64,000 nucleotides of DNA from an uncultured Verrucomicrobia subdivision 3 bacterium (GTDB lineage: Bacteria > Verrucomicrobiota > Verrucomicrobiia > Limisphaerales > UBA11358), in contig CAIKKJ010000075.1 of the NCBI GenBank assembly GCA_903827955.1, positions 5,147 to 69,146 of the forward strand, written 5' to 3'. Numbering within the stretch: position 1 is the first letter of the stretch; each line of letters opens with the position of its first letter. Both the position numbers and the translations under genes were made by a program. A model generated the notes under the pieces. The model saw nothing but the letters and a program-made list of their open reading frames with translations, ran no database searches and was not told where the DNA came from. Below are positions 1 to 58,949 of the stretch, in pieces.

Positions 1-3
1 CGT

Positions 4-3000
4 TTGAGCGGACGCGTGACGGATGTGAACGGTTCACCGCTCGGCGGCGTGCTCGTGGGCAACGGACAAATTGACGCGGCAAAATTCATCGGCGGCTGGA
101 CGGACAGTGACGGCCGTTACACCATCGTCAACGTCAGCGTCACGAACAGCTTCGACTTGCTGCCGCACCAGTTCGGCTACACCTATTCTAACGCGAACTG
201 GGCGAATCCAATTTTCCCGACGAACAACACGGATGGTTTGGATTTCGTCGCGACGCCGCTGCCATTAGTGAATGTTTTTGCCGATACCAATGCCGTCGTC
301 GAAAGCGACGGCGCGGCGCACACGTTCACCGTCACGCGCACCGGCAGCGTGAGCAATGACCTGACCGTGAACCTAGTTTTGAGCGGCACGGCCACGCTGA
401 GATCAGATTATTCGCTGACGCCGACGATTGTCGCCACGAACGGCGTGACGATTCCCGCCGGGACGAACAGCGTTACGTTCACTTTTCACGTTATCAACGA
501 CTCGCTCGTCGAAGGGCCGGAAACCATTTCGCTGACGCTGCTCGACGACGACCAGAACACGAGCAATCCCAACTACGCCATCGCGCCGCTCGGCGATGCG
601 ACCGTGACCATCATTGACGACGATTCACTCGTGACGCCGACCGTGATGCTCACAACCACCACGCCGCAGATTTCCGAAAACGGCATGGATCCCGGCCAGC
701 TCATCTTCACACGCCTCGGCAGCACGGCGGGAGATTTGGCCGTGAATTATTCCGTCAGCGGCACGGCGACGGCGGGCGCGGATTATGTCACGCTGCCGGG
801 CGTGGCGGTGATTCCGACGGGGCAAAGCAGCGTGACGATTCCGCTGGTGCCGATTGATGACAAAAATTTTGAGACCAATGAAACGGTCACTGCCACCCTC
901 GCCACAAATGTCACTTACATCATCGGTTCACCGTCCGCTGCGACCATCACGATTCTCGATGATGATTTCATGACCGTGTCAGTTTATGCCACGGGCGATG
1001 CCGCCGAACCGGCGACCGTCGGAAAATTCACCGTGAAGCGGGACGGTGATTTGACCGAGGCGCTCGTAGTAAATTACAACGTCAGCGGCACAGCCAGCAA
1101 CGGCGTGGATTATTCCGCATTGAGCGGCATTGTGACAATTCCCGCCGGCGCGGCCTCGGCGGATATTTCCGTTGCGCCCATTGACGATTCGCTGTTGGAA
1201 GGCGACGAGACGGTGATGCTTTCGCTAACCAACACGGTGAACTACGATGTCGGCACACCGGGCAGCGCCACGGTTTTCATCCGCGACAGCGAGCGGCCGA
1301 CCATCACCATCAGCTCAACCAATACGCCGATCTCCGAACAAGGTGCGACGACGGGGCAATTCATCATCACGCGCAACAGTTCCGTTGGCGACCTCACCGT
1401 GTTCCTAAACATCAGCGGCACGGCCACAGCCGGCAGTGATTATGTGCCGCTCGACAATCAGGTCCTCATCCCCGACGGCGCGACTTCCGCGACGCTCGAT
1501 GTGATTCCGTTTCACGATTTGATTTTGGAGCCGATGGAAACCGTCATCGTGACGTTGCCGACAAACGCCAATTATTTCGTGTCCTCCTCGGCGAGCGCCA
1601 CGGTGGAAATTCTGGACGACGGCACAAGCACGATTCCCGGCATCGGTTTTTGTTTTGCGACTTCCGCATTTTTGGAAGGCGAATCGCCGGGCATAGCGGT
1701 GACGTTGAGCCAGACTTCCAGCGTGCCGGTGCAGGTCGGCTACCGCGTCATCGGCGGCACGGCCTCAAGCAACCGCTATTCGCTGCCGCAGGGAATTTTG
1801 ATCATTCCGTCAAACACCTGGGTCGCGTTCGTGCCGCTGAAAATCACCAACGACTCCCTCGTCGAACCGCCGCAGACCATCCGCGTCACGCTCTTCAACC
1901 CGGCGAACGCCACGCTCGACGGCATTAAAATCCACACCTACACCATCCTCGATGACGACGTATGTTCCGTGAGCGTCACCGCCACGCAGACGAACGCGGC
2001 GGAAACCGGTTTAGTCGCGGGCAACTTCCGCATCACGCGCGTCGGCTCGACCAATTCCGCGCAGCCCGTGAATTTCCAAATCACCGGCAGTGCCAGCGCG
2101 CCGACAGATTATTCGCCGCTCGGAAATTCTACGGTGATCCCGGCGGGCGCGACGTTTGTGGATCTGCCGGTCACGCCGACGGATGACAACATGATGGAAT
2201 TTCCGCAGACCGTGGTGCTGACTTTGACCAGTGCCACCAATGCAAATATCATTTCGCCCAACGTCGCCACCGTAACCATTGCAGACAACGACACGAATAA
2301 TCTGCCCGTCGTCACCGTCACTTCCACCGACCATCCCAATGCGCTCGAAGGCGGCGCGAACGGCGAGTTTTTATTCACCCGCACCGGCCCGGTGACAAAC
2401 GCGCTGACCATTTTATTTTCTGTCAGCGGCACAGCCGGCAACGGCGTGGACTACGCAGCCATCACGAACGGCGTGACGATTCCTGCCGGCCAGTCGAACG
2501 CCATTGTGAGCGTCGCCGCCGTGGACGACACTTTGGTCGAGGGCGACGAGACGGTCATCATTTCGTTGACCGAGGGTGCGGATTATCGGACTGCGTATCC
2601 GGCGTTCGCAACGGTGACGATCCAAGACAACGACCAGCGCGTGTGGATTGATGCGAGCGATTTCATCGCGTCTAAATACGCGCCGAATCTTCCCGACCCC
2701 GGCCAGTTCACGTTCTCGCGCTTCGGCACGACGAACACGCCGGTCACCATTTTCTACGCCATCAGTGGCACGGCGAGCAACGGCCTCGACTACGCCAGCA
2801 TCACCAACTTCATCGTCATCCCCGCCGGCCAACTCACCACGACGCTACCCATTTTACCGCAGCACAGCGGCATCGTCGTCGGGCCGGTGACGGTGACGCT
2901 CACGTTGCTGACGAACACCGCCTTCGTCCTCGGCGCGAAGACGAATGGCACGGTGACCATCAACGACGACATGCCGGCAGTTTCGATTTCCGCCGTGGTG

Positions 3001-5307
3001 ACAAATGTTTTGGAAGGCAGCGGCTCGAACGGCGTCTTCCGCGTCACGCGCAGCGGCGACCCAAAATATGATTTCACCGCGCTGCTCGGCGTCGGCGGTC
3101 AGGCGACGTTCGGCGTGGATTATCCGCCGTTCGCGACGAATGTTTATTTTTCCTGCGGCGTGACCTCCGTGGATTTGTTCATCACGCCGACAAACGAAGT
3201 TGTGGTGGAAGGCGATGAATCGGTGCTCGCGTTCCTGCTGCCGAGTTCAGCGTATTCCATCCTTTCGCCGAGCAACGCCGTGCTAACCATCGCCGACGCG
3301 GGCACAAATCAAACGCCACAGGTCATCATCACCAGCCCAAAAACTTACGTCGCCTTCGCCAACGGCACGAACGCCGGCTTGGTGCTGAATGCGACGATCA
3401 TTGACGACAGCACCAACGACGTGCTGAAGTGGACGAAGGTGAGCGGGCCGGACAGCTACGTTTTCGGCGACCCCACGACGAACAACACCACGGTGACCTT
3501 CACCAACTCCGGCGTTTATTTGTTGCGGCTCACCGCGGACGACGGCCAGTTGCAAGGCCACGCAGACATTCTGGTTTTCGTCAGCACGGATGTTTTGAGC
3601 GTGACGAACATTTTGCATTGGACGCTCGATGACGGCAGTGGCACGAACGTCCTCGACTCATCAACGAACGGGCGCAACGGCACGCTGGTCGGCCAGCCAG
3701 CATGGATAACGAATGGCGCCATCGCCGGCGCCTTGAATTTTCACGGCACGAATGATTGCGTGCGCCAGACCGCCGGCTCCAACACGTTGAACGGTTTGTC
3801 CGCCTTCACCGTCGCGCTGTGGATCAAACCGGCGACGAACGCGAGCCAGGGATTTTTGACGGCGGATGACGTCAGCACCAATTCTACCTTCAGTTTTTCC
3901 ACACACACTTTTGCGTCTTGCGGAAATTCCACAAACGTCATCGAGACGACCGTTTCCACCACGCAGGGCGTGTTTCACCGCAGCAGCGCCAGCGGCGCGC
4001 TCAAGCCCGGCGCGTGGTCGCACGTCACGCTGACGTGGACGAACGGCGAGGCACTGAAACTTTACATCAACGGCCAACTCGACCAACCGAACGTCGGCTT
4101 CATTGCGGGCAGCGGCGCGTTGACGAATTGCCCACAGTTCATCATCGGCAAGGGCGCGTGGGACAGCCCGGCCTCGTGGAGCGGCGGCGTTGATGATGTG
4201 CGCGTATTTGACCAGGCATTGAGCGCGTCGGAAATTCTCGCCCTCGCCGCCGGGCCGGTGACGAATCACGCGCCAGTCGTGGACGCCGGGCCGGACGTGA
4301 GCGTGCAGATGGGAATTCCCGTCACGCTCATCGGCACGGTCAGTGACGATGGCTTGCCGAATCCGCCTGCGTCCATCACCAACTGGTGGACGTATCTCGG
4401 CACGAATAATATCACGATCACCAATCCCGCGAGCCTCACGAACACCTTCGTTTTCGACACGCCGGGCGATTACGTTTTCCGCCTCACCGCATTCGACGGC
4501 GAGCTGACGAGCTTTGATGACGTGACCATCACCGTGCTGGAGCCGATTTACGTCAGCGTCAATGCCTCCATCAGCGATGCGAACGAACTTGGCCCCGTGC
4601 CCGGCGAATTCACCCTCACGCGCACCGGCGACACCAACAGCCCGCTCACCGTTTATCTCGGCCTCTCCGGCACGGCGAGCAACGCGGTGGATTATGTTGC
4701 GGTGACCAACGCCGTCACGTTCGCCGCGCTAACGAATACAGTTGTCCTGACGCTCACACCCATCCTCGACGACCGCATCGAAGGCGATGAATCAGTGATG
4801 GTCACCGTGCAGACGAACCTCGCCTATGTCATCACCGGCAGCCCGGCAACCGTGACGATTCATGATTCACCCTACGGTTTGTGGAGCATCCAGAATTTCA
4901 CGATCGAGCAGTTGACCTTTCCGAACATCAGCGGCGCGGCGGCGGATTTTGAGCACGACGGCGTGAACAATTTTTCCGAATACGCCTTCAACCACGACCC
5001 GAAAGCCGCCGACGGCAACCCGCCGTATCAATGGGGTTTTGAAACCAGCACGAATGACAACAAGCCGCATCTCACCCTGACGTGGACGCGCCGGCTGCCG
5101 CCGCGCGATGTAGAATATGGCGTGTATGTCTCGACAAACTTGTTGGACTGGAACACAGGGACAAATTATGTGCAGGAATTTTTGCACACGAACGACCCGA
5201 ACGGCATCACCGAAACCGTGAAGACCCGCGCGCTGGCGCCATTTCCGAATTCCATAAAACTGTTCATGAACATCCGCGTATGGTTACAGCAAGTTCCCGC
5301 GCCTTGA
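4..5307 (+). CDS. Large secreted/surface protein with tandem Calx-beta repeats, PKD/Ig-like and LamG domains (5' end probably outside the window)
   Basis: Repeated 'V.Y..SGTA..G.DY...G...IPAG......V.P.DD...EG.ETV' Calx-beta units; LamG-type 'LYING...G.VDDVRVFDQALS'; 'NHAPVVDAGPD' PKD-like unit; frame runs from the window edge. Confidence 0.85.
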   Translation: MSGRVTDVNGSPLGGVLVGNGQIDAAKFIGGWTDSDGRYTIVNVSVTNSFDLLPHQFGYTYSNANWANPIFPTNNTDGLDFVATPLPLVNVFADTNAVVESDGAAHTFTVTRTGSVSNDLTVNLVLSGTATLRSDYSLTPTIVATNGVTIPAGTNSVTFTFHVINDSLVEGPETISLTLLDDDQNTSNPNYAIAPLGDATVTIIDDDSLVTPTVMLTTTTPQISENGMDPGQLIFTRLGSTAGDLAVNYSVSGTATAGADYVTLPGVAVIPTGQSSVTIPLVPIDDKNFETNETVTATLATNVTYIIGSPSAATITILDDDFMTVSVYATGDAAEPATVGKFTVKRDGDLTEALVVNYNVSGTASNGVDYSALSGIVTIPAGAASADISVAPIDDSLLEGDETVMLSLTNTVNYDVGTPGSATVFIRDSERPTITISSTNTPISEQGATTGQFIITRNSSVGDLTVFLNISGTATAGSDYVPLDNQVLIPDGATSATLDVIPFHDLILEPMETVIVTLPTNANYFVSSSASATVEILDDGTSTIPGIGFCFATSAFLEGESPGIAVTLSQTSSVPVQVGYRVIGGTASSNRYSLPQGILIIPSNTWVAFVPLKITNDSLVEPPQTIRVTLFNPANATLDGIKIHTYTILDDDVCSVSVTATQTNAAETGLVAGNFRITRVGSTNSAQPVNFQITGSASAPTDYSPLGNSTVIPAGATFVDLPVTPTDDNMMEFPQTVVLTLTSATNANIISPNVATVTIADNDTNNLPVVTVTSTDHPNALEGGANGEFLFTRTGPVTNALTILFSVSGTAGNGVDYAAITNGVTIPAGQSNAIVSVAAVDDTLVEGDETVIISLTEGADYRTAYPAFATVTIQDNDQRVWIDASDFIASKYAPNLPDPGQFTFSRFGTTNTPVTIFYAISGTASNGLDYASITNFIVIPAGQLTTTLPILPQHSGIVVGPVTVTLTLLTNTAFVLGAKTNGTVTINDDMPAVSISAVVTNVLEGSGSNGVFRVTRSGDPKYDFTALLGVGGQATFGVDYPPFATNVYFSCGVTSVDLFITPTNEVVVEGDESVLAFLLPSSAYSILSPSNAVLTIADAGTNQTPQVIITSPKTYVAFANGTNAGLVLNATIIDDSTNDVLKWTKVSGPDSYVFGDPTTNNTTVTFTNSGVYLLRLTADDGQLQGHADILVFVSTDVLSVTNILHWTLDDGSGTNVLDSSTNGRNGTLVGQPAWITNGAIAGALNFHGTNDCVRQTAGSNTLNGLSAFTVALWIKPATNASQGFLTADDVSTNSTFSFSTHTFASCGNSTNVIETTVSTTQGVFHRSSASGALKPGAWSHVTLTWTNGEALKLYINGQLDQPNVGFIAGSGALTNCPQFIIGKGAWDSPASWSGGVDDVRVFDQALSASEILALAAGPVTNHAPVVDAGPDVSVQMGIPVTLIGTVSDDGLPNPPASITNWWTYLGTNNITITNPASLTNTFVFDTPGDYVFRLTAFDGELTSFDDVTITVLEPIYVSVNASISDANELGPVPGEFTLTRTGDTNSPLTVYLGLSGTASNAVDYVAVTNAVTFAALTNTVVLTLTPILDDRIEGDESVMVTVQTNLAYVITGSPATVTIHDSPYGLWSIQNFTIEQLTFPNISGAAADFEHDGVNNFSEYAFNHDPKAADGNPPYQWGFETSTNDNKPHLTLTWTRRLPPRDVEYGVYVSTNLLDWNTGTNYVQEFLHTNDPNGITETVKTRALAPFPNSIKLFMNIRVWLQQVPAP

Positions 5308-9345: not shown

Positions 9346-10152
9346 ATGCTGTTCAAACACGCCCATGCGGGGAAAGTCGCGCTTTTATTTCTGCTGTCCC
9401 TTGCCGCGGCGCTGGCTGGCCGGGCGACGGATAACAACACCTTTATCGAGCAGGCGGAAAAAGAATTTCAGCGCGCACAAAAAAGTTTTCAAACCGACCC
9501 GCAAAACTCCACAAACTCCTGGCGATTCGCGTCGGCCTGCTTTGACCGGGCCGACCTCGCCACGAATGACGCGCGCCGCGCAGAATCTGCCCGGCTCGGC
9601 ATTGCCGCGTGCCAGCAATTACTCGCCCGCGAGCCGAAGTCCGCGCCGGGACATTATTATCTGGCGATGAATTTCGGCCAGCTCGCCGAGGCCGAGGCCC
9701 CGTCCATCGCCGCCTACAAGCTGGTGCACGAGGTTGAACACGAATTCAAAGCAGCGGCGGCAGTCGATGAACACTTTGATTTCGCTGGCCCGCCGCGATG
9801 CCTTGGCCTGCTTTACCGCGATGCGCCCGGCTGGCCCATCAGCATCGGCAGCAAACGCAAGGCGAAAGATTTTTTAGAACAAGCCGCCCGGCTCGCGCCG
9901 GATTATCCCGAAAACCAGCTGAACCTCGCCGAATCATATTTGAACTGGCGACAGCGCGAGGAAGCCGAAAAGGCCTTGGCCAAACTCGACGCTCTCTGGC
10001 CAGCCGCGCAGACAAACCTCGGCGGCGAACTGTGGGGGAAAAGCTGGCACGATTGGTCGGTGCGCCGGGCGGCGGCGAAGACAGAATTTCAAAAAGTCTT
10101 CAAGCACGCACCCGGACACAGCAATTTAACTGGTGCAAAATTGAATGGATGA
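9346..10152 (+). CDS. Exported TPR-like helical repeat protein (TatT-like)
   Basis: Signal peptide; GHYYLAMNFG, GPPRCLGLLY..APGWP.S.G and A..L.P.YPEN TPR-like helices. Confidence 0.65.
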   Translation: MLFKHAHAGKVALLFLLSLAAALAGRATDNNTFIEQAEKEFQRAQKSFQTDPQNSTNSWRFASACFDRADLATNDARRAESARLGIAACQQLLAREPKSAPGHYYLAMNFGQLAEAEAPSIAAYKLVHEVEHEFKAAAAVDEHFDFAGPPRCLGLLYRDAPGWPISIGSKRKAKDFLEQAARLAPDYPENQLNLAESYLNWRQREEAEKALAKLDALWPAAQTNLGGELWGKSWHDWSVRRAAAKTEFQKVFKHAPGHSNLTGAKLNG

Positions 10153-12676: not shown

Positions 12677-14125
12677 ATGAGCACTGCTACCGAGACAATT
12701 GAGGAATTGGTCAAGACGGAATACAAATACGGCTTCGTCACCGATGTCGAGACCGAATCCACGCCGCCGGGCTTGAGCGAGGAGACCATCCGCCACATTT
12801 CCGCCAAAAAAAACGAGCCAGCGTGGCTGACCGACTGGCGTATCAAGGCTTATCAATACTGGCTGAAAATGCCGGAGCCGACGTGGCAGTTCGTTAAGTA
12901 TCCGAAGATTGATTTCCAAGCCATCAGCTATTTCTCGCAACCAAAGCCGAACGCAAATGCGCCCAAGAGCCTCGACGAAGTGGATCCCAAGTTGCTGGAG
13001 ACTTACGAGAAGCTCGGCATTCCGTTGCGCGAACGCAGCCGGCTCGCCGGCGTGGCGGTGGACGCGATTTTTGATTCCGTCAGCGTCGGCACGACGTATC
13101 GCGAAGATTTGGCGAAGAAAGGAATTATCTTTTGCTCGTTCAGCGAAGCGGTGCACGAACATCCAGAACTCGTCAAAAAATATCTCGGATCGGTCGTGCC
13201 TTACACGGACAACTATTACGCCGCGCTGAATTCCGCCGTGTTCACAGACGGTTCGTTCTGCTACATCCCGAAAGGCGTGCGCTGCCCGATGGAGCTTTCG
13301 ACGTATTTCCGCATCAACGCCGCCAAGTCCGGCCAGTTCGAGCGGACGCTGATTGTCGCGGACGAATCGGCGAGCGTGAGCTATCTTGAAGGCTGCACCG
13401 CGCCGATGCGCGATGAAAATCAGTTGCACGCCGCCGTGGTAGAACTCGTCGCGCTCGACTGCGCGGAAATCAAATACAGCACGGTGCAGAACTGGTATCC
13501 CGGCGACGAAAACGGCGTGGGCGGCATCTACAATTTCGTGACCAAGCGCGGTCTGTGCAAAGGCAAAAATTCGCGCATCACTTGGACGCAAGTCGAGACC
13601 GGTTCGGCGATCACCTGGAAATATCCTAGCTGCATTTTGCTAGGCGATGGCTCGAAGGGAGAATTTTATTCCGTCGCCGTGGTGAACAACATGCAGCAAG
13701 CCGACACCGGCACGAAGATGATCCACATCGGCAAGAACACGAAAAGCACCATTGTTTCCAAGGGTATTTCTGCTGGTCGCGGCCAGAACAGTTATCGCGG
13801 CCTTGTGGAAATCCGCAAGAGCGCCGAGAACGCGCGCAACTTTTCGCAGTGCGACTCGATGCTCATCGGCGCGAAGTGCGGCGCGCACACGTTTCCCTAT
13901 ATCGAAGTCAAGAACACGACGGCGAGCGTGGAGCATGAAGCCTCGACCTCGAAGATCGGCGAAGACCAGATTTTTTACTGCAACTCGCGCGGCCTCGCCA
14001 CGCAGGACGCGGTGAACATGATCGTGAACGGCTTCTGCAAAGAAGTGTTCAAGGAACTCCCGATGGAATTCGCCGTGGAAGCGCAGAAACTTCTGGGCGT
14101 GAGCTTGGAAGGCAGCGTCGGCTAG
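12677..14125 (+). CDS. sufB: Fe-S cluster assembly protein SufB
   Basis: [43 protein letters not shown] and [10 protein letters not shown] motifs. Confidence 0.97.
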
Positions 14126-19271: not shown

Positions 19272-20177
19272 ATGAAAACGGAAAACCCAGTCATCGAAAT
19301 CCAAAACCTCGTGCGGCGCTACGGCAAACACGATGCCGTGGACGGCCTCTCGCTCACCGTGCAGCCCGGCAGATGCTATGGCTTCTTCGGCCGCAACGGC
19401 GCGGGTAAAACCACGACCATCAAGTGCCTGCTTAATTTGCTGCGGCCGGATTCCGGCAGCGTGCGCGTGTTTGGTCTCGACCCGCGCAAGGATGAAGTCG
19501 CCATCAAATCGCGCATCGCCTATGTGCCGGACGTGGTGGCGTTTTATCCGTGGATGACCGTGGCCGACACGCTGGAATACTACGCCTCCTTCCGCACCAA
19601 CTGGAATCGCGACATCGAGGCCGATTTGCTCAAACGCTTTCAGCTCGATGCCGCCAAGAAAACCACGAGTCTCTCGAAAGGCCAGCGCACACAGCTCGCG
19701 CTCATCGGCGCGATTTGTCCCGAACCGGAACTGCTCGTGCTCGATGAGCCGACGAGCGGCCTCGACCCGATTGTCCGCCGCGAATTCATCGAAACCGTCA
19801 TCGGCGCGTATCAATCCGGCGACCCCGGCAAGCGCACGGTGTTTGTTTCCACGCATTTGATTTCCGAGTTCGAGGGTTTGATTGACGAATTCACCATCGT
19901 TGAAAACGGCAAAAATCTTTTGACGATGGAAGCCGACGCCGCGCGGGATCGTTTCAAAAAAATTCGGGCCCGCTTGCCGCAAGAAACCAAACTGAACCTG
20001 TCTGCCGCATTGAGCGTGAAGCAAAGCGGACGCGACGTAGAAATTCTCGCTAACGGCAACAGCGAACAGTTGCTCGCGGAATTGAAGGCGCACAAGCCGG
20101 AGGAATTAAAAATCGAGGCGCTGACGCTGGAAGAAATCTTCGTGGCGTCGGATGTTTTGAAAAAGGCAACCACATGA
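19272..20177 (+). CDS. ABC exporter ATP-binding subunit
   Basis: GRNGAGKTT, LSKGQ, LDEPTSGLDP, STH. Confidence 0.93.
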   Translation: MKTENPVIEIQNLVRRYGKHDAVDGLSLTVQPGRCYGFFGRNGAGKTTTIKCLLNLLRPDSGSVRVFGLDPRKDEVAIKSRIAYVPDVVAFYPWMTVADTLEYYASFRTNWNRDIEADLLKRFQLDAAKKTTSLSKGQRTQLALIGAICPEPELLVLDEPTSGLDPIVRREFIETVIGAYQSGDPGKRTVFVSTHLISEFEGLIDEFTIVENGKNLLTMEADAARDRFKKIRARLPQETKLNLSAALSVKQSGRDVEILANGNSEQLLAELKAHKPEELKIEALTLEEIFVASDVLKKATT

Positions 20178-22990
20178 CCCCGCTCGTCAAAAAAGAAATC
20201 CGCCTGCTGCTGCCGAGCTTTCTCCTCGGTTGCCTGCTGGCATTTTCCAACTGGCTGCTGCCCATCATAGCGCGAGATTTCGACGGAATATTTTACCTGT
20301 TCCCATTCGTATTCTGCCCGGCGATGGTGGCCATGATGGCACTCAATCCGTTTGGCGGCGAGGTGAGCGCGGGCACGCTGGCCAACCTGTTGGCGCAACC
20401 CATTTCGCGGCTGCGGCTGTGGCAGACGAAAATTGTGCTGTTGGCGCTCGCGCTGTTGATTATCGGCCTGCTCTGGTGTGGATCTTTTATTTTACAATTA
20501 CATTTTTACGGTAACCACGGTGATTTCAAAAATCCGCTGGATGCGCTTATTACCGCCGTCCTCTTCGGCCTCGTGGTTTTTTCCGGCGGACTGTGGACGG
20601 TGCTGCTGCTGCGGCAGGTGGCAGCGGCGTTTTGGTTCACGCTACTCGTGCCGGGCGTGTTGCTGGTGATTGTCTTCGCCATCTTCGGCGGCGAATCGGA
20701 CGAACTCATCACCGCCGTGAGCGTGACGGTGCTGGGGCTTTACAGCCTCGCGGGATTTTTCTTTGCGCGCTGGCTGTTTTTCCGCGCGCAGGATTTGCAA
20801 TGGTCGGGCGGCAGCATCGTCATGCCGGAAATGCGCGGGCTAAAGTGGTGGGGCGAGCGTCCTCGCGAGCCGCACGTCGTGGGTGCCAGCGGCTCGTCAG
20901 TAGCCTCGCCCCACCGAAGACATCCGCGCGCGGCACTGTGGCGCAAGGAATTCATGCTGCACCAGTCGCAATACGTCATGGCCTTCGTGCTGCTCGTGCT
21001 GCACCTCGGCGTGCTGGGCGTGCGACGTTTTTACGACTTGAGCCATTCGCGCGACTTGAAATTCACGCTCGAAATTTTCTGGGGTCTGTGGTTTGTGATG
21101 CCGCTGCTCGTCGGTTGCGCGGCGGTGGCGGAGGAACGCAAAATCGGCACGCTCGAAGGCCAGCTCTGCCTGCCGGTAAAACGGCGCTCGCAGTTCGCCA
21201 TCAAATTTATCGTGATGCTCTTTCTGTCCGTGCTGCTCGGCGTGGTGATGCCGTTGCTACTGGAAGGTAAACGGATTTTGCCGGGCGGCGGCCTTGATTT
21301 CTCAACGGCCACCGGGGTCATGGGACAAATTGCCTCCACAAATTATCCATTCTCCACCATAGAAACGATTTTGTTGAACACGGTGGTCATGGTGTGTCTT
21401 TATTTACCGGTGCTTTTTTTGGTCGGCATTGCTTTGCTGATTGGCGGCATGGCGTTTTACGCGTCGTCGCTGGCCCGCAACACGCTGCAATCGCTTGCGC
21501 CGGCAGTGCTGGGAATTTTGGTCATGTGTTTTCTGCTGGCGGCGGCGGGTATTCCGGCGGTTCCCACAGTTGATTTTATGTGGCGCGGGCCGCTGGCGTA
21601 TTTCATCGGCGTGCCGCTGGTGCTGCTCACGCTGGTGGGCTTGGCGTTTTGGAATTTTCAGCAGGTCAAAGCCAGCGCACAAATGGGCTGGCGCAACCTG
21701 CTGGCGTTCGTGCTGGCCGTGGGGCTGGGCGTGGTGACGACGGCGGCGGTGTATCATCGCGCGTGGGAAAAACTCACGCCGTTCGAGCCGGCGCACGGCG
21801 CGGCGCGGTTGGCGCTGGCGGATTCTGTCCGGTTGGAAAACCCTTGGAACGACTTGAGCGTCCGTTTGCCGGAGGGAAAAATCTGGAAAGCCTGGTCCAA
21901 ATACAACCGACCTGACCCGCTTGATGTGTTGCTGGGAAATTTCAAAGTCGCGAAGCAGGAAGGCGCATATCTCGGCGGCTCGAATTGGACAGCCGTGGTT
22001 GATTGTCTTTGGTATCAACAGGCGGGCATCAAGTCGGACGGGACGCTGTGGGTTTCGCCAAAGCCAAAACGTCCCAGCGCCTCCGAAAGATTCCGGTCCG
22101 TCTTGCCAAAACGAGAAGCACTCGCGCAATTTGGCAGCGAGACCAACTGGAGCAGTCTGGGCTCGCGAGGAATTTTTGCGTTGCTCGTTAAAAATGACGG
22201 AACCTTGTGGCGCTGGGGCGTGACGAATTTTGACTCGAAGCACGAAACCTGGCCCGGCCTGCAAGCCTTCACGCCCCAGCGGCTCGGAACGGAATCAAAC
22301 TGGGCGGAGGTTTCCGAACATAACTACCGGTTTCAACTTCGCGAGACCGACGGCAGCGTCTGGACTTGGAATGACTACGGCAGCACAAACAATCTGACCC
22401 GGCTTGAAATTGAACCGGGGTTCACCGTCGAATCCATGACTAGCTTCAAAAATTTTCGCAGCAAGGCATACATAAATCCTGGATTGCAATACCGCGTCGG
22501 CGTGCGCGACGACGGCACCTTCCGCATCTGGTCTGGTGATCGTGTGGTTATCAATAAAACTTCACGCTACAATTCTTACGAGCAGTTTCCGATGGATTTG
22601 CAAATCGGCAGCGAAACCAACTGGCTCGCCGTCGCTGGCGGCGGCGAAAAAATCATCACGCTCAAAAACGACGGAACGCTCTGGCTGTGGAATTTTCAGC
22701 GGAGTCAATTCAGCGGTGGAGCACAAAACGAATTTGAATCGGAAATCCAAAAGACCGTCCCCGTCCGCCTCGGCAAGCATGCGGACTGGATAGCCATTTC
22801 CGGCGGTTGGGAGGCCACCACTCTCGCCGCCGACGGCAGCCTCTGGTATTGGCCGCTGCAAACCGGCAACCGCTATGACGGTGCCTACAGCACATACGAC
22901 GACCGGAATGATTTCAGCCACATCCGCCCGCTGCTGGAAAGCTCGCGCAAGCCGCAGTTGCTGGGAAATGTGTTTGCCGGCGGACAGTGA
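20174..22990 (+). CDS. Duplicated ABC-2-type permease fused to a C-terminal RCC1/BLIP-II-like beta-propeller
   Basis: Two 'L.KE' / 'E...GTL..L...P..R....K' permease halves; repeated 'K.DGTLW' and 'G.E.NW' blades. Confidence 0.75.
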   Translation: MTPLVKKEIRLLLPSFLLGCLLAFSNWLLPIIARDFDGIFYLFPFVFCPAMVAMMALNPFGGEVSAGTLANLLAQPISRLRLWQTKIVLLALALLIIGLLWCGSFILQLHFYGNHGDFKNPLDALITAVLFGLVVFSGGLWTVLLLRQVAAAFWFTLLVPGVLLVIVFAIFGGESDELITAVSVTVLGLYSLAGFFFARWLFFRAQDLQWSGGSIVMPEMRGLKWWGERPREPHVVGASGSSVASPHRRHPRAALWRKEFMLHQSQYVMAFVLLVLHLGVLGVRRFYDLSHSRDLKFTLEIFWGLWFVMPLLVGCAAVAEERKIGTLEGQLCLPVKRRSQFAIKFIVMLFLSVLLGVVMPLLLEGKRILPGGGLDFSTATGVMGQIASTNYPFSTIETILLNTVVMVCLYLPVLFLVGIALLIGGMAFYASSLARNTLQSLAPAVLGILVMCFLLAAAGIPAVPTVDFMWRGPLAYFIGVPLVLLTLVGLAFWNFQQVKASAQMGWRNLLAFVLAVGLGVVTTAAVYHRAWEKLTPFEPAHGAARLALADSVRLENPWNDLSVRLPEGKIWKAWSKYNRPDPLDVLLGNFKVAKQEGAYLGGSNWTAVVDCLWYQQAGIKSDGTLWVSPKPKRPSASERFRSVLPKREALAQFGSETNWSSLGSRGIFALLVKNDGTLWRWGVTNFDSKHETWPGLQAFTPQRLGTESNWAEVSEHNYRFQLRETDGSVWTWNDYGSTNNLTRLEIEPGFTVESMTSFKNFRSKAYINPGLQYRVGVRDDGTFRIWSGDRVVINKTSRYNSYEQFPMDLQIGSETNWLAVAGGGEKIITLKNDGTLWLWNFQRSQFSGGAQNEFESEIQKTVPVRLGKHADWIAISGGWEATTLAADGSLWYWPLQTGNRYDGAYSTYDDRNDFSHIRPLLESSRKPQLLGNVFAGGQ
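20847..20915. repeat. REP-like palindromic element, copy 1 (69 bp, in frame in the ABC permease)
   Basis: GGTGGGGCGAGCGTCCTCGCGAGCCG - 17 nt - CGGCTCGTCAGTAGCCTCGCCCCACC; both arms identical to 42527-42588. Confidence 0.92.
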
Positions 22991-24017: not shown

Positions 24018-25265
24018 TTATTTTTTGAGCGCGTCCACAGCGTTCTTGGTGGCATCCGCTGTTGCTTGCGCGGCGTCTTTGACCGTTTCCACCGCCGTTG
24101 CCGCTGCACCTTTCAACGTGGCCGCGGCGTCTTCCGACTTCTTGTTGCCCCAGCCGATGATGCAAGTCGAGCCGACGAGCAGCGCGAGCATCAGCACGAC
24201 CAGTTTTTTCGTGAACGGCTGTGCGCCGCGCCATTCCTTGAAGAAAATTCCCCACAGCGTGCTGAAAATGATGATGCTCGCCATATGCAGCGTCCAACTG
24301 GAAAATTTATACGCGCCCATCTGGCTCTCACCCATCTGGTAGAAGAAAAATTGCAGATACCAGAACGTGCCGGCGAGGATGCAGAAAAACCAGTTGCCGC
24401 CGAGCGGCACGGCGCTGCCGATCTCGAACGATTGCACGGAAGTTTTTCCACCGTGGCCGTCGCCGCCCGTTGTCTGGCTGTTCACTGGTTTGACCGTGGG
24501 ACTGAAGTATTGGTGCGCCGAGCCGTTCTTGATGTGCAGCATCACGCACCAGAGAAAATTCGTCGTCAGGCCGCCGAGCAAAATCGTGACCACCACCGGC
24601 AGACCGGCAAATTTGGGGTCGGTTCCGTGCGCGAGCGACAGGTCGTGAATCGGCCCGCCGTATTGAAAGCCAAACGAGAAACACGCGCTCATCACGCCGG
24701 AGAACGTCGCGATGGCGAGGCCTTTCCACAAATTAAATTCCGGCAGCACGCTGTTGCTCCCGCTCATTTCCTTTTCCTTGCGCACACCAGCAACGCCACC
24801 AATGAAAATTCCCAGCAAACAGACGAACACGCCGAGCAGCACCAACGGCCCGCCAACGCTCGTGCCGGAATGGTTCAGCAGCTTGTCGGCGAATTCACCC
24901 TTCACAATCGGCGGGACGAGCGTGCCGAACGCCGCGCAGTAGCCCAGCGCCACCGCCATGCCCAGCGACATGCCGAGATAACGCATCGTCAGCCCGAATG
25001 TCAATCCGCCGAAACCCCACAACGCGCCCATCAGATATGTCATCCAAAACGTGTGGCTTGGCGTCTCGTGTAACACTTGGAGCAAATCTTTCGACAGCAC
25101 AAACGCGCCAATCCACGGGCAAATGAGCCAGCTGAACATTCCGCCCGCCAGCCAGAAAGTTTCCCACGACCATTTGCGGACGCCTTTGAAGGGAACGTAA
25201 AAACTGCCGGACGCGAGACCGCCGAGCCAGTGAAAGACGACGCCAAGTAAGGGATTCGGTTGCAT
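24018..25265 (-). CDS. rhaT: L-rhamnose/proton symporter
   Basis: SFYVP.K.V.KWSWE, LWGFGGLTFGLTMRYLG.S.G, WYLQFFFY, SWTLHM, KEW. Confidence 0.92.
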   Translation of the reverse strand: MQPNPLLGVVFHWLGGLASGSFYVPFKGVRKWSWETFWLAGGMFSWLICPWIGAFVLSKDLLQVLHETPSHTFWMTYLMGALWGFGGLTFGLTMRYLGMSLGMAVALGYCAAFGTLVPPIVKGEFADKLLNHSGTSVGGPLVLLGVFVCLLGIFIGGVAGVRKEKEMSGSNSVLPEFNLWKGLAIATFSGVMSACFSFGFQYGGPIHDLSLAHGTDPKFAGLPVVVTILLGGLTTNFLWCVMLHIKNGSAHQYFSPTVKPVNSQTTGGDGHGGKTSVQSFEIGSAVPLGGNWFFCILAGTFWYLQFFFYQMGESQMGAYKFSSWTLHMASIIIFSTLWGIFFKEWRGAQPFTKKLVVLMLALLVGSTCIIGWGNKKSEDAAATLKGAAATAVETVKDAAQATADATKNAVDALKK

Positions 25266-25278
25266 GATTTATTTTGGT

Positions 25279-26532
25279 TTAGTTGCGTTTGCTCAAAACT
25301 GTTTTCTCGTAATTCTTCGCTTCTGTCAGCCAATGTTCGCCGACGGGAACGCCCTGACTTTCGCAGTAATAGTCCCAGACCGCGCCGAACGGCAGCGTCT
25401 TGGCTTCTTCCTGCAATGCGAGACGCGTGGTGAAATCTCCCGCCGCTTCCGCCGTGCGGATGAGCGGGGTTTCGAGCAGCGCGATGAGCAGGGCGCGAAT
25501 CATGTTGCGCGTGCCGATGGTCCACGCGGCGACGCGATTGATGCTGGCGTCGAAATAGTCGAGGCCGATGTGAACGCGCTTCTCAAAACCGTTCACCGCG
25601 ATTTCGCGGGCGATGGCGAGCAGGTCGTCGTTGAGAATCACGACGTGATCGCTGTCCCAGCGCACGCCGCGGCTGACGTGCAGCAAAATCTCCGGCATGA
25701 ATTGCAACACGCTGGAAATCTTGTCAGCGATGCCTTCGGTCGGATGATAATGGCCGGCATCGAGCGTTAGCAGCTTCTTCCGACTGACCGCATAGCCCAG
25801 ATAAAATTCATGCGAGCCGACCACAAAACTTTCACTGCCGATGCCGAACAGTTTCGGCTCCACCGCATCGAGATTAAGCTTCGGCGAAATCTGTTTCTTG
25901 AAAATCGCGTCGAGCGATTCCGCCAAGCGTTCACGGGGCGAAACGCGATCCGCCGGCGTGTCCTTCATGCCGTCGGGTATCCACACATTCGTCACGCAGG
26001 TCTTGCCGAGCGCCTTACCCATCGCCGCGCCGATCTCGCGCGAGCGGATGCAATGCTCAATCCAGAATTTCCGCACACCCTTATCCGCGTGCGACAGCGT
26101 GAAGCCATCCGCCGCCTGCGGATGCGAGAAGCACGTCGGATTAAAGTCGAGGCCGAGGCCGTTCTTCTTCGCCCAAGAAATCCAGTTCGCGAAATGCTTC
26201 GGCTCGATGGCGTCGCGATCCACTTTTTTGCCACCAAATTCGCCGTAGAAGGCGTGCAGGTTCAAGCGATGCTTGCCGGGAATGAGCGAGAGGGATTTAT
26301 CGAGGTCAGCGCGGAGTTCATCCGGCGTGCGGGCTTTGCCGGGATAATTTCCGGTGACCGCCAGACCGTTGACCAACGCGCCGCCGGCATTTTCAAAACC
26401 ACCCACATCATCACCCTGCCAGCAGTGCAGTGAAATGGGAATCGTGGCCAGCGTTTGCAACGCGTGTTCCACATCCACGCCGAGACCGGCATAACGTTCT
26501 TGGGCGAGGCAAAATGATTTGGCAATGCTCAT
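25279..26532 (-). CDS. rhaA: L-rhamnose isomerase
   Basis: [52 protein letters not shown]; ATG at 26532. Confidence 0.95.
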
Positions 26533-26621
26533 GTCGTAAAATTCAAATAATATGGGATTTTGTCCGCGCAGGCTAGTCACGCAAGCGCGGGCGGGCAATC
26601 CCCAATTGTGGTTAGGTAATT

Positions 26622-27743
26622 TTATTTCGTGCCGTTTGCTTGCAGATGAGCTCTCAAATCTTTGGACGTAGCCAGCGCGATTACGCGACCTTCGCTGCCG
26701 ACGGCGCAGTAGAAGTGATAGACCACGCCGTTCCATTTCACGACCCACGGTTTGTGCGCGTAGGTTTGGTCGAATGGCTCGCTAGGCTGAATTAATTTTT
26801 TCCCATCCCATTTGGTCCAGTGAACGAGGTCGTAGGAACACGCAAACGTGTCGAACGCGTGCGGCTGCCAGCCGGCTCCAAAATAAAACATCGTCCACAC
26901 GTCACCCAGCTTCACGATTTGCGGGTCACCGCTGATGCCGTTCTTTTTCGCCTCGCCGTTGACGATGACGGAGTTGGTTCCGTAGCGGCTCCAGTTTTTC
27001 AGGTCGCTGGAAACGGCCATGCCGATTTGTTCGTAGCCGTTTTTATATTTCGCGTTGTAAAACATCACAAACGGCCAGCCGAGCGACTGAGCCTCGTCGT
27101 GGATGATCTGGCTTTTGTAGAGCGTCTTGGTTTCAAACTCGCGCGCGTCCGGCTGCTTCGGCGACAGCACGGGGTTTTCTGCAAGCCGCGTCCACTCCTT
27201 CGCTTTCGTCGGCGATTTTGTCCACGCCACGCCGAGTGAAAGCGGGTCGGTCTCGTAGCCTTGCTTCGCGCCGCCGATGTAGGTGAGCCAAAACTTGCCG
27301 GCGAATTTTTCTAGTGCGTGCGTGCCGTCCCAATGGTAATCGCACAACGCAATTCCGCCGTCCGCCTGCCACGCGTCCCACTGGTTCGTGGGCGTGAAGG
27401 TAAGAATTTTTCCCAGCTTCTCCCAATGCAACAGGTCGTCGCTCTTCGCAAGGAACGTCTGGTAGCCCACCTTGTTCGTGATGGCAACATACAGCATGAA
27501 CCAATGCTTGCCGCTGCGGAAAATGCTCGGGCAATCCACGAGCACGTTCGTGCTTTCGCCGCGCAGCACTACGCCATATTTAAACGGCGTCTTCACCTCG
27601 TCGTAAATCTGCTGCATCACGTTCGTGTCCACAAGCCGGCCTTCGGGGATGGCGGGGATGACCGTGCGATGGGAATCAGCGGCGTGAACACTCTGGAGTG
27701 CCAGACCAGACAAGCACACAGATAGCAGCAACAGTAGTTTCAT
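26622..27743 (-). CDS. Secreted five-bladed beta-propeller glycoside hydrolase (GH137-like)
   Basis: Signal peptide; '[15 protein letters not shown]', DCPS.F, SDDLLHW, GYETDPL and AHKPWVV blades; family assigned from memory of GH137 sequences. Confidence 0.7.
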
Positions 27744-27765
27744 AATCAATTTCAGTTTGGGAATA

Positions 27766-28839
27766 TCAATGGCCGGAATTTTTCGTCGCGCGGATGATTT
27801 CATTGCGACCGCTTTGCGCCGAACTGCAGGCGGCGGCGATGATTTCCATCGAGGCGAGGCCAAGTTCGCCCGACGAACCATTGGCAGCATTGCCGAGAAT
27901 CGCCTCGATAAAATTTAGCGCGGGTGATTGCGCCGGATAGATTTCTTCCGCCGCGAGCGGTTTGAATTCCGTGCGTTGGTTCGCAAAATCGGTCAGCGTC
28001 ATCGTGCCGCGCCACAGTTCCAGTTGCAAAATGGCTTGGCTGCCGAAAACACGAACCTCGTAATTTTTTTCCGCCAACGGCGTTGCGGCCGTGCTGGCGA
28101 GCGAAACAAGCGCGCCGTTTTCCATTGTAATGGTTAGGGCGTTGTAGAGGTCGTTCGGCGAGCCGTCGCGGTCGAAGCGCGCGAAGACTTCGGCCGGGCG
28201 CAGTCCGGTGAGAAACGTCAGATACGCCGCCGCGTGCGAGACCTGACAGTAGATTTGCCCGCCGCCGGCGATGGCCGGGTCGTTGTAAGAACCGCGCCCC
28301 GGCTGGACATAGACGTTGTCCATCCCGTGTGTCGGCGAGGTGTTGATGCCGCGCAGCAACTGGTCAATCGGGTTGGTCATCAGCACGGAAATCATTTTGA
28401 CTTCGCCCAGCGCACCGGCATGAATCAAACGCCGCGCCTCGATGCCGTGCCGCGTGAAATGCCACGGGCAACTGATAAGCAATTGCAAATTTTTCTGTGC
28501 CGCCAATTCCACGAGCTCACGCGCTTCGGCGGCGGTGAAAGTCATCGGCTTTTCCACCAGCACATGCAGCCCGCGTTCGAGCGCAGCCTTGGCTTGCGCG
28601 TAGTGGACGTTCGGCGTGGAGGCCACGATGACAGCGTCGAGCGGTTGCAGCGCGAGCAAGGACTCAACTTCAGTGCAGGCGTGGGCCGCGCCAAAATCCC
28701 GCGCGATTTTTTCCGCCTGCTCGCGACCGCGTGTCTGGATGGCGACGAGTTTTGCCGCCGGATGCGATCGCACCGCCGGCAGGTGAGCGAAGGTCGCCCA
28801 CCATCCCGCGCCAATCACGCCAATGGAAATTTGCTTCAT
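27766..28839 (-). CDS. Gfo/Idh/MocA family oxidoreductase
   Basis: GVIGAG, STPN..H, HVLVEKP, GGG...H motifs. Confidence 0.9.
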   Translation of the reverse strand: MKQISIGVIGAGWWATFAHLPAVRSHPAAKLVAIQTRGREQAEKIARDFGAAHACTEVESLLALQPLDAVIVASTPNVHYAQAKAALERGLHVLVEKPMTFTAAEARELVELAAQKNLQLLISCPWHFTRHGIEARRLIHAGALGEVKMISVLMTNPIDQLLRGINTSPTHGMDNVYVQPGRGSYNDPAIAGGGQIYCQVSHAAAYLTFLTGLRPAEVFARFDRDGSPNDLYNALTITMENGALVSLASTAATPLAEKNYEVRVFGSQAILQLELWRGTMTLTDFANQRTEFKPLAAEEIYPAQSPALNFIEAILGNAANGSSGELGLASMEIIAAACSSAQSGRNEIIRATKNSGH

Positions 28840-28932
28840 GCCGGAAACAGCTGACGGCGCGCTTAACTGGTTGCCGCCAAATTTTGGTTTGCCCGACGGT
28901 GTCAAAAAAAATGCGCGTTGCCGAGAATTTTG

Positions 28933-29586
28933 TCAGAAAGCGGCGGTCTGCTGCACTGCCGCCGCGAGCAGTCCGAGGTAGCTGCTGCGCGAAATTACTT
29001 TTGCTCCGAAAGGTTCGGTCGCGGGCGTGACCATTTGGATGTCGAACAATGAAAACTTTCTTTCACGCAAATGCGCCGCGAGTTTTACGAGCGCGACCTT
29101 CGAGGCGTTGTCTGCGCGGTGGAACATGGATTCGCCCGCGAACAATCCGCCAACACTTACGCCGTAGATGCCGCCCACAAGTTTTCCGGACTGCCAGCAC
29201 TCGACGCTGTGCGCGTGACCGAGTTCGTGCAGCCGCGTGTAGGCCGCGATGAACTCCGGCGAAATCCAAGTGCCGCCGCGTTTCGGATCCGGCGCGGCGC
29301 ACGCGGTCATTACCTTGCGGAACGCAGTGTTCACGGTGACTTCAAACGGACAGCGGCGAATAAATTTTGCTAGGCTCGCGGAAACATGAAACGTATCCAG
29401 CGGCATCACGCCGCGTGGTTCCGGGGACCACCAAGAAATCGGATTCACGCTCCACGGAAAAATTCCGCTGCGATACGCGAGCAGCAGCCTTTCAGGCGAA
29501 AGGTCGCCGCCGACCGCGAGCAGGCCATCCGCGTCGGCCGCGTTTACGTCGGGAAACCAGAGTCGCTGATCCAGCATCGCGGGCAT
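28933..29586 (-). CDS. aat: Leucyl/phenylalanyl-tRNA-protein transferase
   Basis: GLLAVGGDL, AY..GIFPW, WWSPEPR, AHSVECW, F.GESMF, ASKVAL. Confidence 0.95.
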   Translation of the reverse strand: MPAMLDQRLWFPDVNAADADGLLAVGGDLSPERLLLAYRSGIFPWSVNPISWWSPEPRGVMPLDTFHVSASLAKFIRRCPFEVTVNTAFRKVMTACAAPDPKRGGTWISPEFIAAYTRLHELGHAHSVECWQSGKLVGGIYGVSVGGLFAGESMFHRADNASKVALVKLAAHLRERKFSLFDIQMVTPATEPFGAKVISRSSYLGLLAAAVQQTAAF

Positions 29587-29589
29587 GGT

Positions 29590-30081
29590 TCACTCCGGCA
29601 GTTCCGGCGGCACGTCGCCGTTGATGATGCCGAGGAAAAACATTTCGAACGCCCCGGCGATCTCCATAAACATCGCGCGCCGCGCGCCCTCGGAGTTTGG
29701 CGCAATTTTTTTCTTTGGTTCATAGCCCGGCGAACCCAGCGCAAGCCAGCAGCCGATGCGCACGTCGTTGACGACTTGCAGCAGCCATTCCAAATCAGTT
29801 CGGGAGAAAGCAGCCTGGCTTGCATTTTCTTTATCCGTGAACCGCCCCGGCTCGTTGATCAGCGCGAGAACTTCCTGCTGGTTTTGCTGGCGTTGCGCCT
29901 TGAGCGCGTCGTCGAGCAACTGCTGGTTTTCCTCGCGTCGCGGAAATTTTTTATCCTTCGTCAACCGGTGGTGCGCGGCTGGCACGAGCGGATACATGGA
30001 AAGCAGATGCAGCAGCAGCAGCTTTTCCTCGGTGGCAAACTCAATCAAAAAGTTTCCACCGTCATGGCCAAGAAATTTCAT
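29590..30081 (-). CDS. DUF2017-like protein
   Basis: 'WLQVVNDVRIG...ALG' motif; overlaps the clpS stop (ATGA). Confidence 0.6.
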   Translation of the reverse strand: MKFLGHDGGNFLIEFATEEKLLLLHLLSMYPLVPAAHHRLTKDKKFPRREENQQLLDDALKAQRQQNQQEVLALINEPGRFTDKENASQAAFSRTDLEWLLQVVNDVRIGCWLALGSPGYEPKKKIAPNSEGARRAMFMEIAGAFEMFFLGIINGDVPPELPE

Positions 30082-30383
30082 TTGCCATCGCGCTCCAGCG
30101 TGGCATTGAGCGTGTATTTCTGAAGCTGGTGAACGTAGAACTCCGCTTTCTCCAAACTCTCCCGCGTCAGCACGCTCTTGCCGTTTTTGTGAACTTCCAG
30201 CATGTGCTTCTCGGCTTTCTTGCGCTCCCAGCCGAAGACGGTTTGGAAAACATGCGTCACATAATCCATCAAATTCACCGGGTCGTCCCAGCAGATGACG
30301 AGATAGCCCGGCTCGTGTTCGCTGGCGGAATCCGCCGCATGCGAAATGTCCGGGGCGACTTCAGGAAAAGCGGTGGCGGGCAT
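30078..30383 (-). CDS. clpS: ATP-dependent Clp protease adaptor ClpS (actinobacterial-like)
   Basis: WDDPVNLMDYVT.VF, MLEVH..G, E.AE.Y...L....L.AT. Confidence 0.92.
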   Translation of the reverse strand: MPATAFPEVAPDISHAADSASEHEPGYLVICWDDPVNLMDYVTHVFQTVFGWERKKAEKHMLEVHKNGKSVLTRESLEKAEFYVHQLQKYTLNATLERDGK

Positions 30384-30415
30384 GATTCAATTTATTTCAG
30401 TCGCACAAAAAAACT

Positions 30416-49328: not shown

Positions 49329-49332
49329 CTTC

Positions 49333-58945: not shown

Positions 58946-58949
58946 CGGT

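Follow-up and report, generated by a model that had tools for sequence, protein, structure and literature searches.

The N-glycosylation enzymes STT3, PglB and AglB act on the short sequon N-X-S/T or, in bacteria, D/E-X-N-X-S/T. The general O-glycosylation of the Bacteroidota is described, at the level of the abstract, as following the motif D-(S/T)-(A/I/L/V/M/T) (PMC8550257). Abstract-level descriptions likewise present the animal proteins TMTC1-4 and TMEM260 as domain-specific protein O-mannosyltransferases (PMC10214176, PMC11292533). The streptococcal YfhO-family proteins PgtC2 and PgfM1 are described as protein O-glycosyltransferases that are paired with a GtrB/PgfS GT-A enzyme and glycosylate extracytoplasmic Ser/Thr (PMC11092751). 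A Thr-Asn repeat region is noted in the exported p60 protein (iap) of Listeria monocytogenes (PMC3768361, PMC3917698). Here, we describe an excess of the dipeptide Thr-Asn (TN) in the exported proteins of an uncultured Verrucomicrobia subdivision 3 bacterium of the Limisphaerales, noted in a 64,000-nucleotide stretch of its genome (contig CAIKKJ010000075.1 of assembly GCA_903827955.1, positions 5,147 to 69,146; hereafter the window) and above all in the protein encoded at its start, positions 4–5307. TN is a selected two-residue motif of exported proteins in this bacterium and, patchily, in other lineages of the Verrucomicrobiota. A full-text literature search, covering result listings and the beginnings of abstracts, returned nothing on a Thr-Asn bias of exported proteins and nothing on protein glycosylation in Verrucomicrobiota.

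The gene in which the bias is most easily seen is incomplete in the window:

1–5307, plus strand: C-terminal 1768 codons of a giant exported Calx-beta/LamG protein, with ten Calx-beta repeats, LamG and two PKD-like domains; 52 TN.

The frame 4–5307 is open over 1767 codons and contains 239 Thr (13.5%) and 125 Asn (7.1%); the whole gene (G000:C75:3014-10453, where G and f labels denote genomes and families of the phylum sample and G000 is this genome) starts upstream of the window and encodes 2479 residues with an N-terminal hydrophobic signal. Pfam matches above the cut-offs are Calx-beta (257.6 bits, seven stretches), Laminin_G_3 (77.8) and a K319L-like PKD domain (61.3), phmmer identifies ten Calx-beta repeats, and by its domains the protein is classed as an adhesin-like exported Calx-beta/LamG protein. 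The open reading frame (ORF) carries 52 TN where its own composition predicts 16.9, an observed-to-expected ratio (O/E) of 3.08; 5000 shuffles gave a mean of 16.9 (standard deviation 3.65, maximum 30, z = 9.6), and TN ranks first among its over-represented dipeptides. Thr precedes 52 of the 125 Asn (42%), and the reverse pair NT is found 12 times (O/E 0.71). The full-length protein contains 58 TN versus 19.6 expected. The original prediction had put the count at about 50, with a large share of the Asn following Thr and NT far rarer, all of which is borne out; the excess is real and larger than was then thought. Its further suggestion that Ser-Asn is also enriched fails, as SN occurs 12 times against 10.3 expected (1.17) in the ORF and stands at 0.80 across the genome.

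The bias was then followed through the whole assembly (3.86 Mb, 213 contigs, 95% complete), using 2941 genes called by our own crude, self-trained codon-score caller and expected dipeptide counts computed for each protein from its own composition. Protein classes were assigned by a simple hydrophobicity-based rule for signal peptides and transmembrane (TM) segments, a crude rule whose errors are mostly exported proteins with a wrong start counted as cytoplasmic. TN occurs 5724 times against 3522 expected (1.63), the highest ratio of all dipeptides with an expectation above 50, and remains far above 1 with these per-protein expectations, with NT at 0.80. In the signal-peptide proteins (n = 580) the ratio is 2.04 (2516/1231), in single-TM proteins 1.84 and in multi-pass proteins 1.48, compared with 1.18 (1585/1346) in proteins that have neither signal nor TM segment (n = 1710) and 1.00 (883/878.7) in the 1440 no-signal proteins with K+R+E of at least 15%. 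The residual excess among no-signal proteins stems from 54 proteins with K+R+E below 9%, which look like missed exported proteins. When exported proteins are binned by composition, TN is in excess in all bins (1.47–2.35). Apart from TN, the strongest exported-over-cytoplasmic enrichment belongs to CH and MK, which we take to be CXXCH haem c sites and signal-peptide starts, respectively; their recovery provides an internal check that the method picks up known compartment motifs.

Within the exported class, TN at 2.04 contrasts with NT at 0.82, and Thr and Asn separated by gaps of 2–6 give 0.92–1.04, such that only the adjacent pair in the order T-then-N is raised. Neither residue can be exchanged: SN stands at 0.79–0.85 in the protein-class counts (Ser does not substitute for Thr), Thr-Asp at 0.8 (Asp does not substitute for Asn), and VN and IN are not enriched. 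For N-X-S/T the O/E is 1.09 in the exported class and 1.05 in the cytoplasmic one, and the frequency of N-x-[ST] is 0.186 for the Asn of TN versus 0.171 for other Asn. The order specificity, the compartment specificity and the departure from N-X-S/T that were first suspected from the window therefore hold for the genome. The excess is not due to repeats, because 3632 of 3690 eight-residue TN contexts are distinct. Compared with p60, which likewise has TN pairs in an exported protein, the difference is one of kind: p60 has one tandem low-complexity repeat in one protein, whereas here thousands of single, non-repetitive sites are spread over the exported proteome.

Two T/N-rich proteins of this genome (G000:C133:1668-6077 and G000:C195:674-2236) contain no TN at all, with 10.6 and 6.7 expected and a genome median of 2.2 for such proteins; they may be recent imports or belong to another protein class.

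An excess of this kind could originate at the nucleotide or translational level, from biased codon pairing, a motif in the DNA or faulty gene calls. Six of the eight Thr-Asn codon pairs, combining ACA, ACC or ACG with AAC or AAT, are enriched 1.7–3.1 fold, whereas the same hexamers are not enriched out of frame (2618 versus 2399 in frame 1); this combination places the effect on the protein. The only pairs without enrichment are ACT-AAC (0.71) and ACT-AAT (0.84), which points to some nucleotide-level filter; we suggest that it is avoidance of an out-of-frame TAA, which both of these pairs create. Against a nucleotide-level origin of the excess as a whole, the effect hinges on a signal peptide elsewhere in the protein, and the pair is kept at the protein level across orthologues of 48–75% identity; we regard such an origin as nearly excluded. 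Hexamer counts were also tried as a genome-wide proxy for the trait, both for ACCAAC alone and for all eight pairs, and were rejected since the ratios were too noisy and dependent on codon usage.

To place the trait among lineages, 78 named Calx-beta loci were retrieved with a three-repeat alignment and all ORFs of at least 600 residues were scored, the outgroup phyla being loci of the same retrieval. Pooled by record title, they separate as follows:

Limisphaerales / subdivision 3: 6 loci, TN 273/105.6, O/E 2.58.
Other named Verrucomicrobiota (Prosthecobacter, Brevifollis, Verrucomicrobiaceae, Chthoniobacteraceae/-ales, Opitutus): 11 loci, TN 150/170.1, O/E 0.88.
Other phyla (Acidobacteriota, Myxococcota, Gammaproteobacteria, Planctomycetota, Cyanobacteria, Bacteroidota): 13 loci, TN 212/295.4, O/E 0.72.

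Calx-beta homologues from unrelated phyla thus have no excess, and neither this comparison nor the correction for composition refutes the original prediction; individually, the homologues in these phyla and in Opitutus, Chthoniobacteraceae and Verrucomicrobiaceae range from 0.3 to 1.2. The closest orthologues of the giant protein are titled Limisphaerales or Verrucomicrobia subdivision 3. The ratios of the 57 loci whose expectation is at least 8 have a bimodal distribution that peaks near 0.8 and 2.4. TN-rich and TN-poor homologues (groups defined by TN itself, 2.41 versus 0.76) have the same composition (T 10.1 versus 9.8%, N 5.7 versus 5.2%), and apart from TN every dipeptide lies within 1.8-fold between them, including TD (0.78 versus 0.80) and SN (1.14 versus 0.93). 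That TN is high at equal composition with TD at 0.78 and SN at 1.14 argues for chemical specificity rather than a generic turn propensity.

Some record labels of Calx-beta relatives look doubtful (L061, L088, L105, L126 and L104). A record titled Candidatus Acidiferrales carries an orthologue of the giant protein, full-length and 72% identical, and the labels Bifidobacterium, Bifidobacteriaceae or Akkermansia muciniphila stand on TN-rich Calx-beta loci with 59–64% GC.

Giant ORFs around LamG and Calx-beta matches were scored as well, in a survey that is biased towards adhesin-like proteins. Those near LamG pool to 1.72 over 20 loci of the same order (range 0.27–3.12) and to 1.81 over 20 loci of other orders of the class, among which families f73, f74 and f76 are TN-rich and f12, f13, f14, f17 and f80 are not; f69 has one TN-rich genome (G119) beside the TN-poor G113 and G127. 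In other classes, f22, f26, f29 and f33 are TN-rich (1.95–3.70), and f18, f20, f21, f23, f24, f25, f28 and f31 are not. Exported-class ratios obtained with the same pipeline are 3.10 for G079 and 0.94, 0.56, 0.81 and 0.97 for the TN-poor G074, G080, G058 and G115 (pooled 0.85); random 100-kb genome samples contain few exported proteins and have wide errors. The trait is lineage-limited, patchy across the Verrucomicrobiota and variable in strength. One LamG match (G064:C5:80522-81007), in a 3.2-Mb genome of another class, lies in a frame of 19033 residues, the sampled part of which scores 0.93.

Such a distribution invites a historical explanation, in which ancestral adhesin domains spread by duplication, shuffling and horizontal transfer and carried along a TN habit that has no present function. 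The patchy spread is consistent with it, as are the two TN-rich proteins of G119 (34/16.8 and 25/13.3) within an otherwise poor genus (G113, G127), and G148, whose giant ORFs are TN-rich (2.57) and whose 22 ordinary exported proteins are not (11/12.4 = 0.89). In this genome, too, the strongest excess belongs to the giant multi-domain proteins (2.06–2.11). However, every size bin of exported proteins is in excess, from 1.50 at 60–200 residues up to 2.11 at 800–1500, and the small proteins of 60–500 residues, which come from unrelated families, reach 1.50–1.84. Contexts that are almost all distinct, conservation of TN beyond expectation in orthologues and the many TN positions found in a single orthologue (44 of 115 alignment columns), which imply ongoing gains, all run counter to a passive inheritance, and drift leaves unexplained why only T-then-N rises at equal composition. 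We consider the historical explanation improbable; domain shuffling and horizontal transfer account for part of the pattern, the small exported proteins excepted.

The anatomy of the sites was examined on an AlphaFold model of residues 1–1105 of the window protein (10-sequence alignment, mean pLDDT 76.4); the model of residues 1106–1767 (mean pLDDT 49.9) was kept out of the statistics. The Thr of TN lies in coil at 21 of 23 sites, versus 45 of 122 for other Thr, and the Asn lies 0–1 residue ahead of a strand at 13 of 23 sites; shuffling within coil and within strand yields 8.8 ± 2.7 TN against the 23 observed. Within the Calx-beta repeats, TN returns at three loop positions that are homologous between repeats. 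Relative to other Asn of the same proteins, the pair is followed preferentially by T, A or S (not P or E) and then by P, V, I or F, with K and R at the second position after the Asn down to 0.30; D, E, K, R and H are all disfavoured around TN, and Asp before TN stands at 1.15 relative to Asp before any Thr. On this model, TN occupies surface loops, mostly one to two residues ahead of a beta-strand, and tends to have a small and then a hydrophobic residue after it.

All nine full-length orthologues of the giant protein (48–75% identity) are in excess, with 35–52 TN against 13–20 expected. The pair is retained as a unit at 66–74% of sites at ~72% identity, versus ~47% expected, and at 38–43% of sites at ~50% identity, versus ~19% expected, where the expectation is the product of the retention of other Thr and that of other Asn. 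Of the 115 alignment columns with TN, 11 keep it in nine or more of the ten sequences and 44 are singletons, and the mean column occupancy of TN is 3.92, compared with 1.94–3.49 for eleven other dipeptides and 5.13 for DD. Replacements in the orthologues are mostly SN, AN, TD and ND. Judged from the alignment, the TN sites are under purifying selection together with turnover.

Much in this anatomy would be expected if TN were an unmodified structural cap at the loop-to-strand transition of beta-sandwich and other exported folds, one that these lineages would favour, for example, because their envelope chemistry or a periplasmic factor of their own for folding or secretion rewards it. The Thr in coil and the Asn just ahead of a strand, the recurrence at homologous Calx-beta loops, the retention of the pair as a unit with turn residues as replacements, and the rise of hydrophobic residues with the loss of K and R two positions after the Asn, as on strand entry, all fit such a cap, as does an excess that is confined to long folded domains and absent from short membrane loops. 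Yet a generic turn preference should be visible in every bacterium, whereas homologues elsewhere score 0.3–1.2, and Asp does not substitute for Asn (TD 0.78) and Ser hardly for Thr (SN 1.14). Other Asn are as near to strands (23 of 40 at 0–1 residue ahead), so position alone leaves the preceding Thr unexplained, and no candidate folding factor has been identified. A structural cap strikes us as rather unlikely in absolute terms, though nearly as likely as a modification.

A further possibility centres on the Asn, either as the site of a new N-linked modification with Thr at −1 or as an exposed residue that the Thr at −1 shields from, for example, an Asn-directed protease or from decay. It draws on the shift being largest from the Asn side: Asn is preceded by Thr in 26% of cases in TN-rich homologues versus 8% in TN-poor ones (and in 42% in the window protein), with nearly all other residues before Asn depleted in the former (GN, YN, FN, RN, PN). 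Asn is rarer than Thr, however, so a larger relative shift on its side is partly arithmetic. To our knowledge, no enzyme reads the residue before Asn, which counts against this possibility. Although TN resembles the N-glycosylation sequons as a short, Asn-containing motif of exported proteins, its hydroxy residue is at −1 instead of +2, N-X-S/T is not enriched, and no STT3 family gene was found in the 95%-complete genome (0 matches to PF02516 at E ≤ 0.01), while the family is present in 4 of 14 control genomes. An Asn-directed mechanism, doubtful on this evidence, would be a sub-case of recognition by a lineage-specific factor.

The bias is directly observed at the amino-acid level, with specificity of order and residue, limits of compartment and lineage, a loop position and conservation, and its order, its Thr/Asn specificity, its compartment limit and its bimodal, patchy spread together argue that an extracytoplasmic factor particular to these lineages recognises the pair. 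A modification enzyme would, tentatively, be the simplest factor of this kind; the existence of a covalent modification, the residue that would carry it and the enzyme that would make it are inferred from the pattern. Our preferred reading, at less than even confidence, is that TN serves an undescribed extracytoplasmic modification of proteins as its acceptor or recognition motif; slightly more tentative still is the fuller proposal that it is the sequon of a general modification system, most likely glycosylation, acting on exported proteins of Limisphaerales and several other Verrucomicrobiota lineages. The most probable form would be O-glycosylation of the loop Thr, in which a lipid-linked sugar donor would serve a membrane enzyme of the GT-C glycosyltransferase fold that transfers the sugar after Sec export, much as in the general O-glycosylation of Bacteroidota, with a different short motif. 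Like that system, TN is a short motif, limited to a single phylum and to proteins leaving the cytoplasm (2.04 versus 1.00). It differs in being T-N and Thr-specific, with no acidic residue ahead, and in occupying only part of its phylum: the enriched motif is not an acceptor of the Bacteroidota type, as Ser does not substitute and Asp before TN reaches only 1.15. TN also has no glycan, glycosylation gene cluster or transferase assigned to it.

Several results weigh against modification of TN. Alone among the exported classes, the 43 proteins that begin with a prepilin-type motif lack the excess (47/45.5). It is also absent from the short loops of multi-pass membrane proteins (0.95–0.97). In 232 multi-pass proteins oriented by the positive-inside rule, a crude topology, both sides of the membrane show ~1.7–1.8, driven by long domains. 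Most known O-glycosylation systems accept Ser besides Thr. The good conservation of TN, with turn residues as its replacements, fits a structural role equally well. The remaining difficulties concern the enzyme. Genome matches comprise eight PMT_2-type, two TMEM260-like and three Wzy_C proteins, and at least five GT-C proteins are fused to TPR:

L199, G000 C54:28487-32137: TMEM260-like + TPR.
L200, G000 C101:53009-55948: TMEM260-like + TPR.
L206, G000 C51:18906-20858: PMT_2 + TPR.
L207, G000 C178:16655-18985: TPR with a sub-threshold PMT_2 match.
L202, G000 C170:1405-3354: Wzy_C + TPR.

Two further candidates lie in the window, the first of them with neighbours directly downstream:

60070–62754, minus strand: YfhO-like multi-pass membrane protein, candidate GT-C enzyme, sub-threshold match to Pfam YfhO.
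57968–59981, minus strand: GT2 glycosyltransferase (57968–58990) and FkbM-type methyltransferase (58950–59981), directly downstream of the YfhO-like gene.
47736–49400, minus strand: multi-pass membrane GT-C candidate with a sub-threshold PMT_2 match (21 bits), beside GT1, YdjC-like and Wzz-like genes.

The fusions recall TMTC1-4 and TMEM260 on two counts: the targets would be Thr of Ig-like beta-sandwich extracellular domains, and a GT-C membrane domain is joined to TPR (TMEM260-like + TPR and PMT_2 + TPR in this genome). They part from them in that no TN rule is reported for the animal enzymes within the scope of the abstracts and that the bacterial homologues do not co-vary with TN. Six GT-C candidates, drawn from the TMEM260-like, PMT_2 + TPR, YfhO-like and 47736–49400 proteins, were compared with TN status, and none of the six clearly tracks the trait. 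The TMEM260-like family occurs in 5 of 5 TN-rich genomes but also in 7 of 14 TN-poor ones; an L199 orthologue exists in all five test genomes, two of them TN-poor, and L200 in none of the five. PMT_2 + TPR proteins number 6–8 in the TN-poor G068 and G080, with none in the TN-rich G028. In G079, the most TN-rich genome sampled, there are 9–11 PMT_2 + TPR paralogues, mostly clustered on one contig (G079:C16:27450-43716 and 89752-93230).

The original prediction had also suggested a tie to the two window genes, which the data do not support. A search of 60 other genomes of the phylum sample, five TN-rich ones included, found the gene at 47736–49400 in none. For the YfhO-like gene, none of the 10 genomes without a match (counted at a TN expectation of at least 7) is TN-rich and 13 of the 20 with a match are, although related genomes are not independent; of the seven TN-poor genomes with a match, G058 (48% identity), G031 and G115 (40%) have full-length orthologues, intact in G058 and G115, and in the TN-rich G028, G117, G118, G133 and G142 the match spans only the C-terminal 90–185 residues. 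The protein itself reaches 24.9 bits against Pfam YfhO, under the 28.5 cut-off and over residues 797–865 at the C-terminus only, and has no PDB or NCBIfam match. Its resemblance to the streptococcal YfhO enzymes lies in the adjoining GT2 gene; in contrast to them it is sub-threshold, with a C-terminal match only and with intact orthologues in TN-poor genomes, and the streptococcal targets are poly-Ser/Thr disordered tails whereas the TN sites are folded loops. Both window genes stand within polysaccharide-type clusters, the YfhO-like gene with GT2, FkbM methyltransferase and GT4 genes and 47736–49400 with GT1, YdjC and Wzz genes. No enzyme is linked to the trait; the GT-C + TPR fusions and the streptococcal precedent for YfhO-family enzymes make a machinery plausible.

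The YfhO-like gene is arranged differently elsewhere. In one genus (G113:C41, G119:C58, G127:C16 and G135:C45) its N- and C-terminal halves fall in two adjacent frames, with three TGA stops in the N-terminal match of G135 and a single frame of 806 residues around both halves in G127; the two scored genomes of this genus are TN-poor. In two genomes of other classes (G028:C96:2838-4963 and G024:C63:4867-7940), the best TMEM260-like match adjoins the match to the window YfhO-like protein, which hints at a two-enzyme unit.

The other window proteins that were counted, with the cytoplasmic controls last, are the following:

9346–10152, plus strand: exported TPR protein; 3 TN versus 0.4 expected.
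20174–22990, plus strand: ABC-2-type membrane protein whose C-terminal part is a large RCC1/propeller-like domain; 5 TN versus 1.7 expected.
26622–27743, minus strand: glycoside-hydrolase-like protein with weak GH130/GH32N matches; 5 TN versus 0.8 expected, 0 NT.
41230–41832, minus strand: exported protein of 200 residues that matches no family; 5 TN versus 2.6 expected.
12677–14125, plus strand: SufB, cytoplasmic control; 0 TN, 1.4 expected.
39302–41134, minus strand: AspS, cytoplasmic control; 1 TN, 0.9 expected.
41862–44966, plus strand: LeuS, cytoplasmic control; 3 TN, 2.3 expected.

Every TN of 20174–22990 lies within residues 389–815, all five of 41230–41832 lie at residues 138–180 (in its last 63 residues), and STND occurs twice in the C-terminus of the YfhO-like protein, at residues 754 and 788. 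The counts originally given for these exported proteins were right, and the low counts claimed for SufB, AspS and LeuS agree with those listed. A C-terminal sorting domain common to the giant protein and 41230–41832 was considered and rejected, as phmmer and two rounds of hidden Markov model searching returned no other protein in the genome. The TN-rich glycoside-hydrolase-like protein is surrounded by a sugar-use cluster on the minus strand (24018–31843), which also contains a RhaT-like transporter, an L-rhamnose isomerase, a GFO/IDH/MocA oxidoreductase and an arabinose/fucose-isomerase-like protein.

In this large and mostly uncultured group, a two-residue signature marks thousands of sites of the exported proteome, and no described system fits it. 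If TN is a modification motif, it would extend general protein modification beyond the few phyla in which it has been described, would amount to a second phylum-level bacterial 'glycosylation code' after that of the Bacteroidota, and would supply a sequence rule with which modified sites could be predicted in metagenomic proteins. If it is instead structural, it would represent a rare, lineage-specific folding 'dialect' in homologous domains, of use in protein design and in assigning metagenomic adhesin genes and phages to their hosts.

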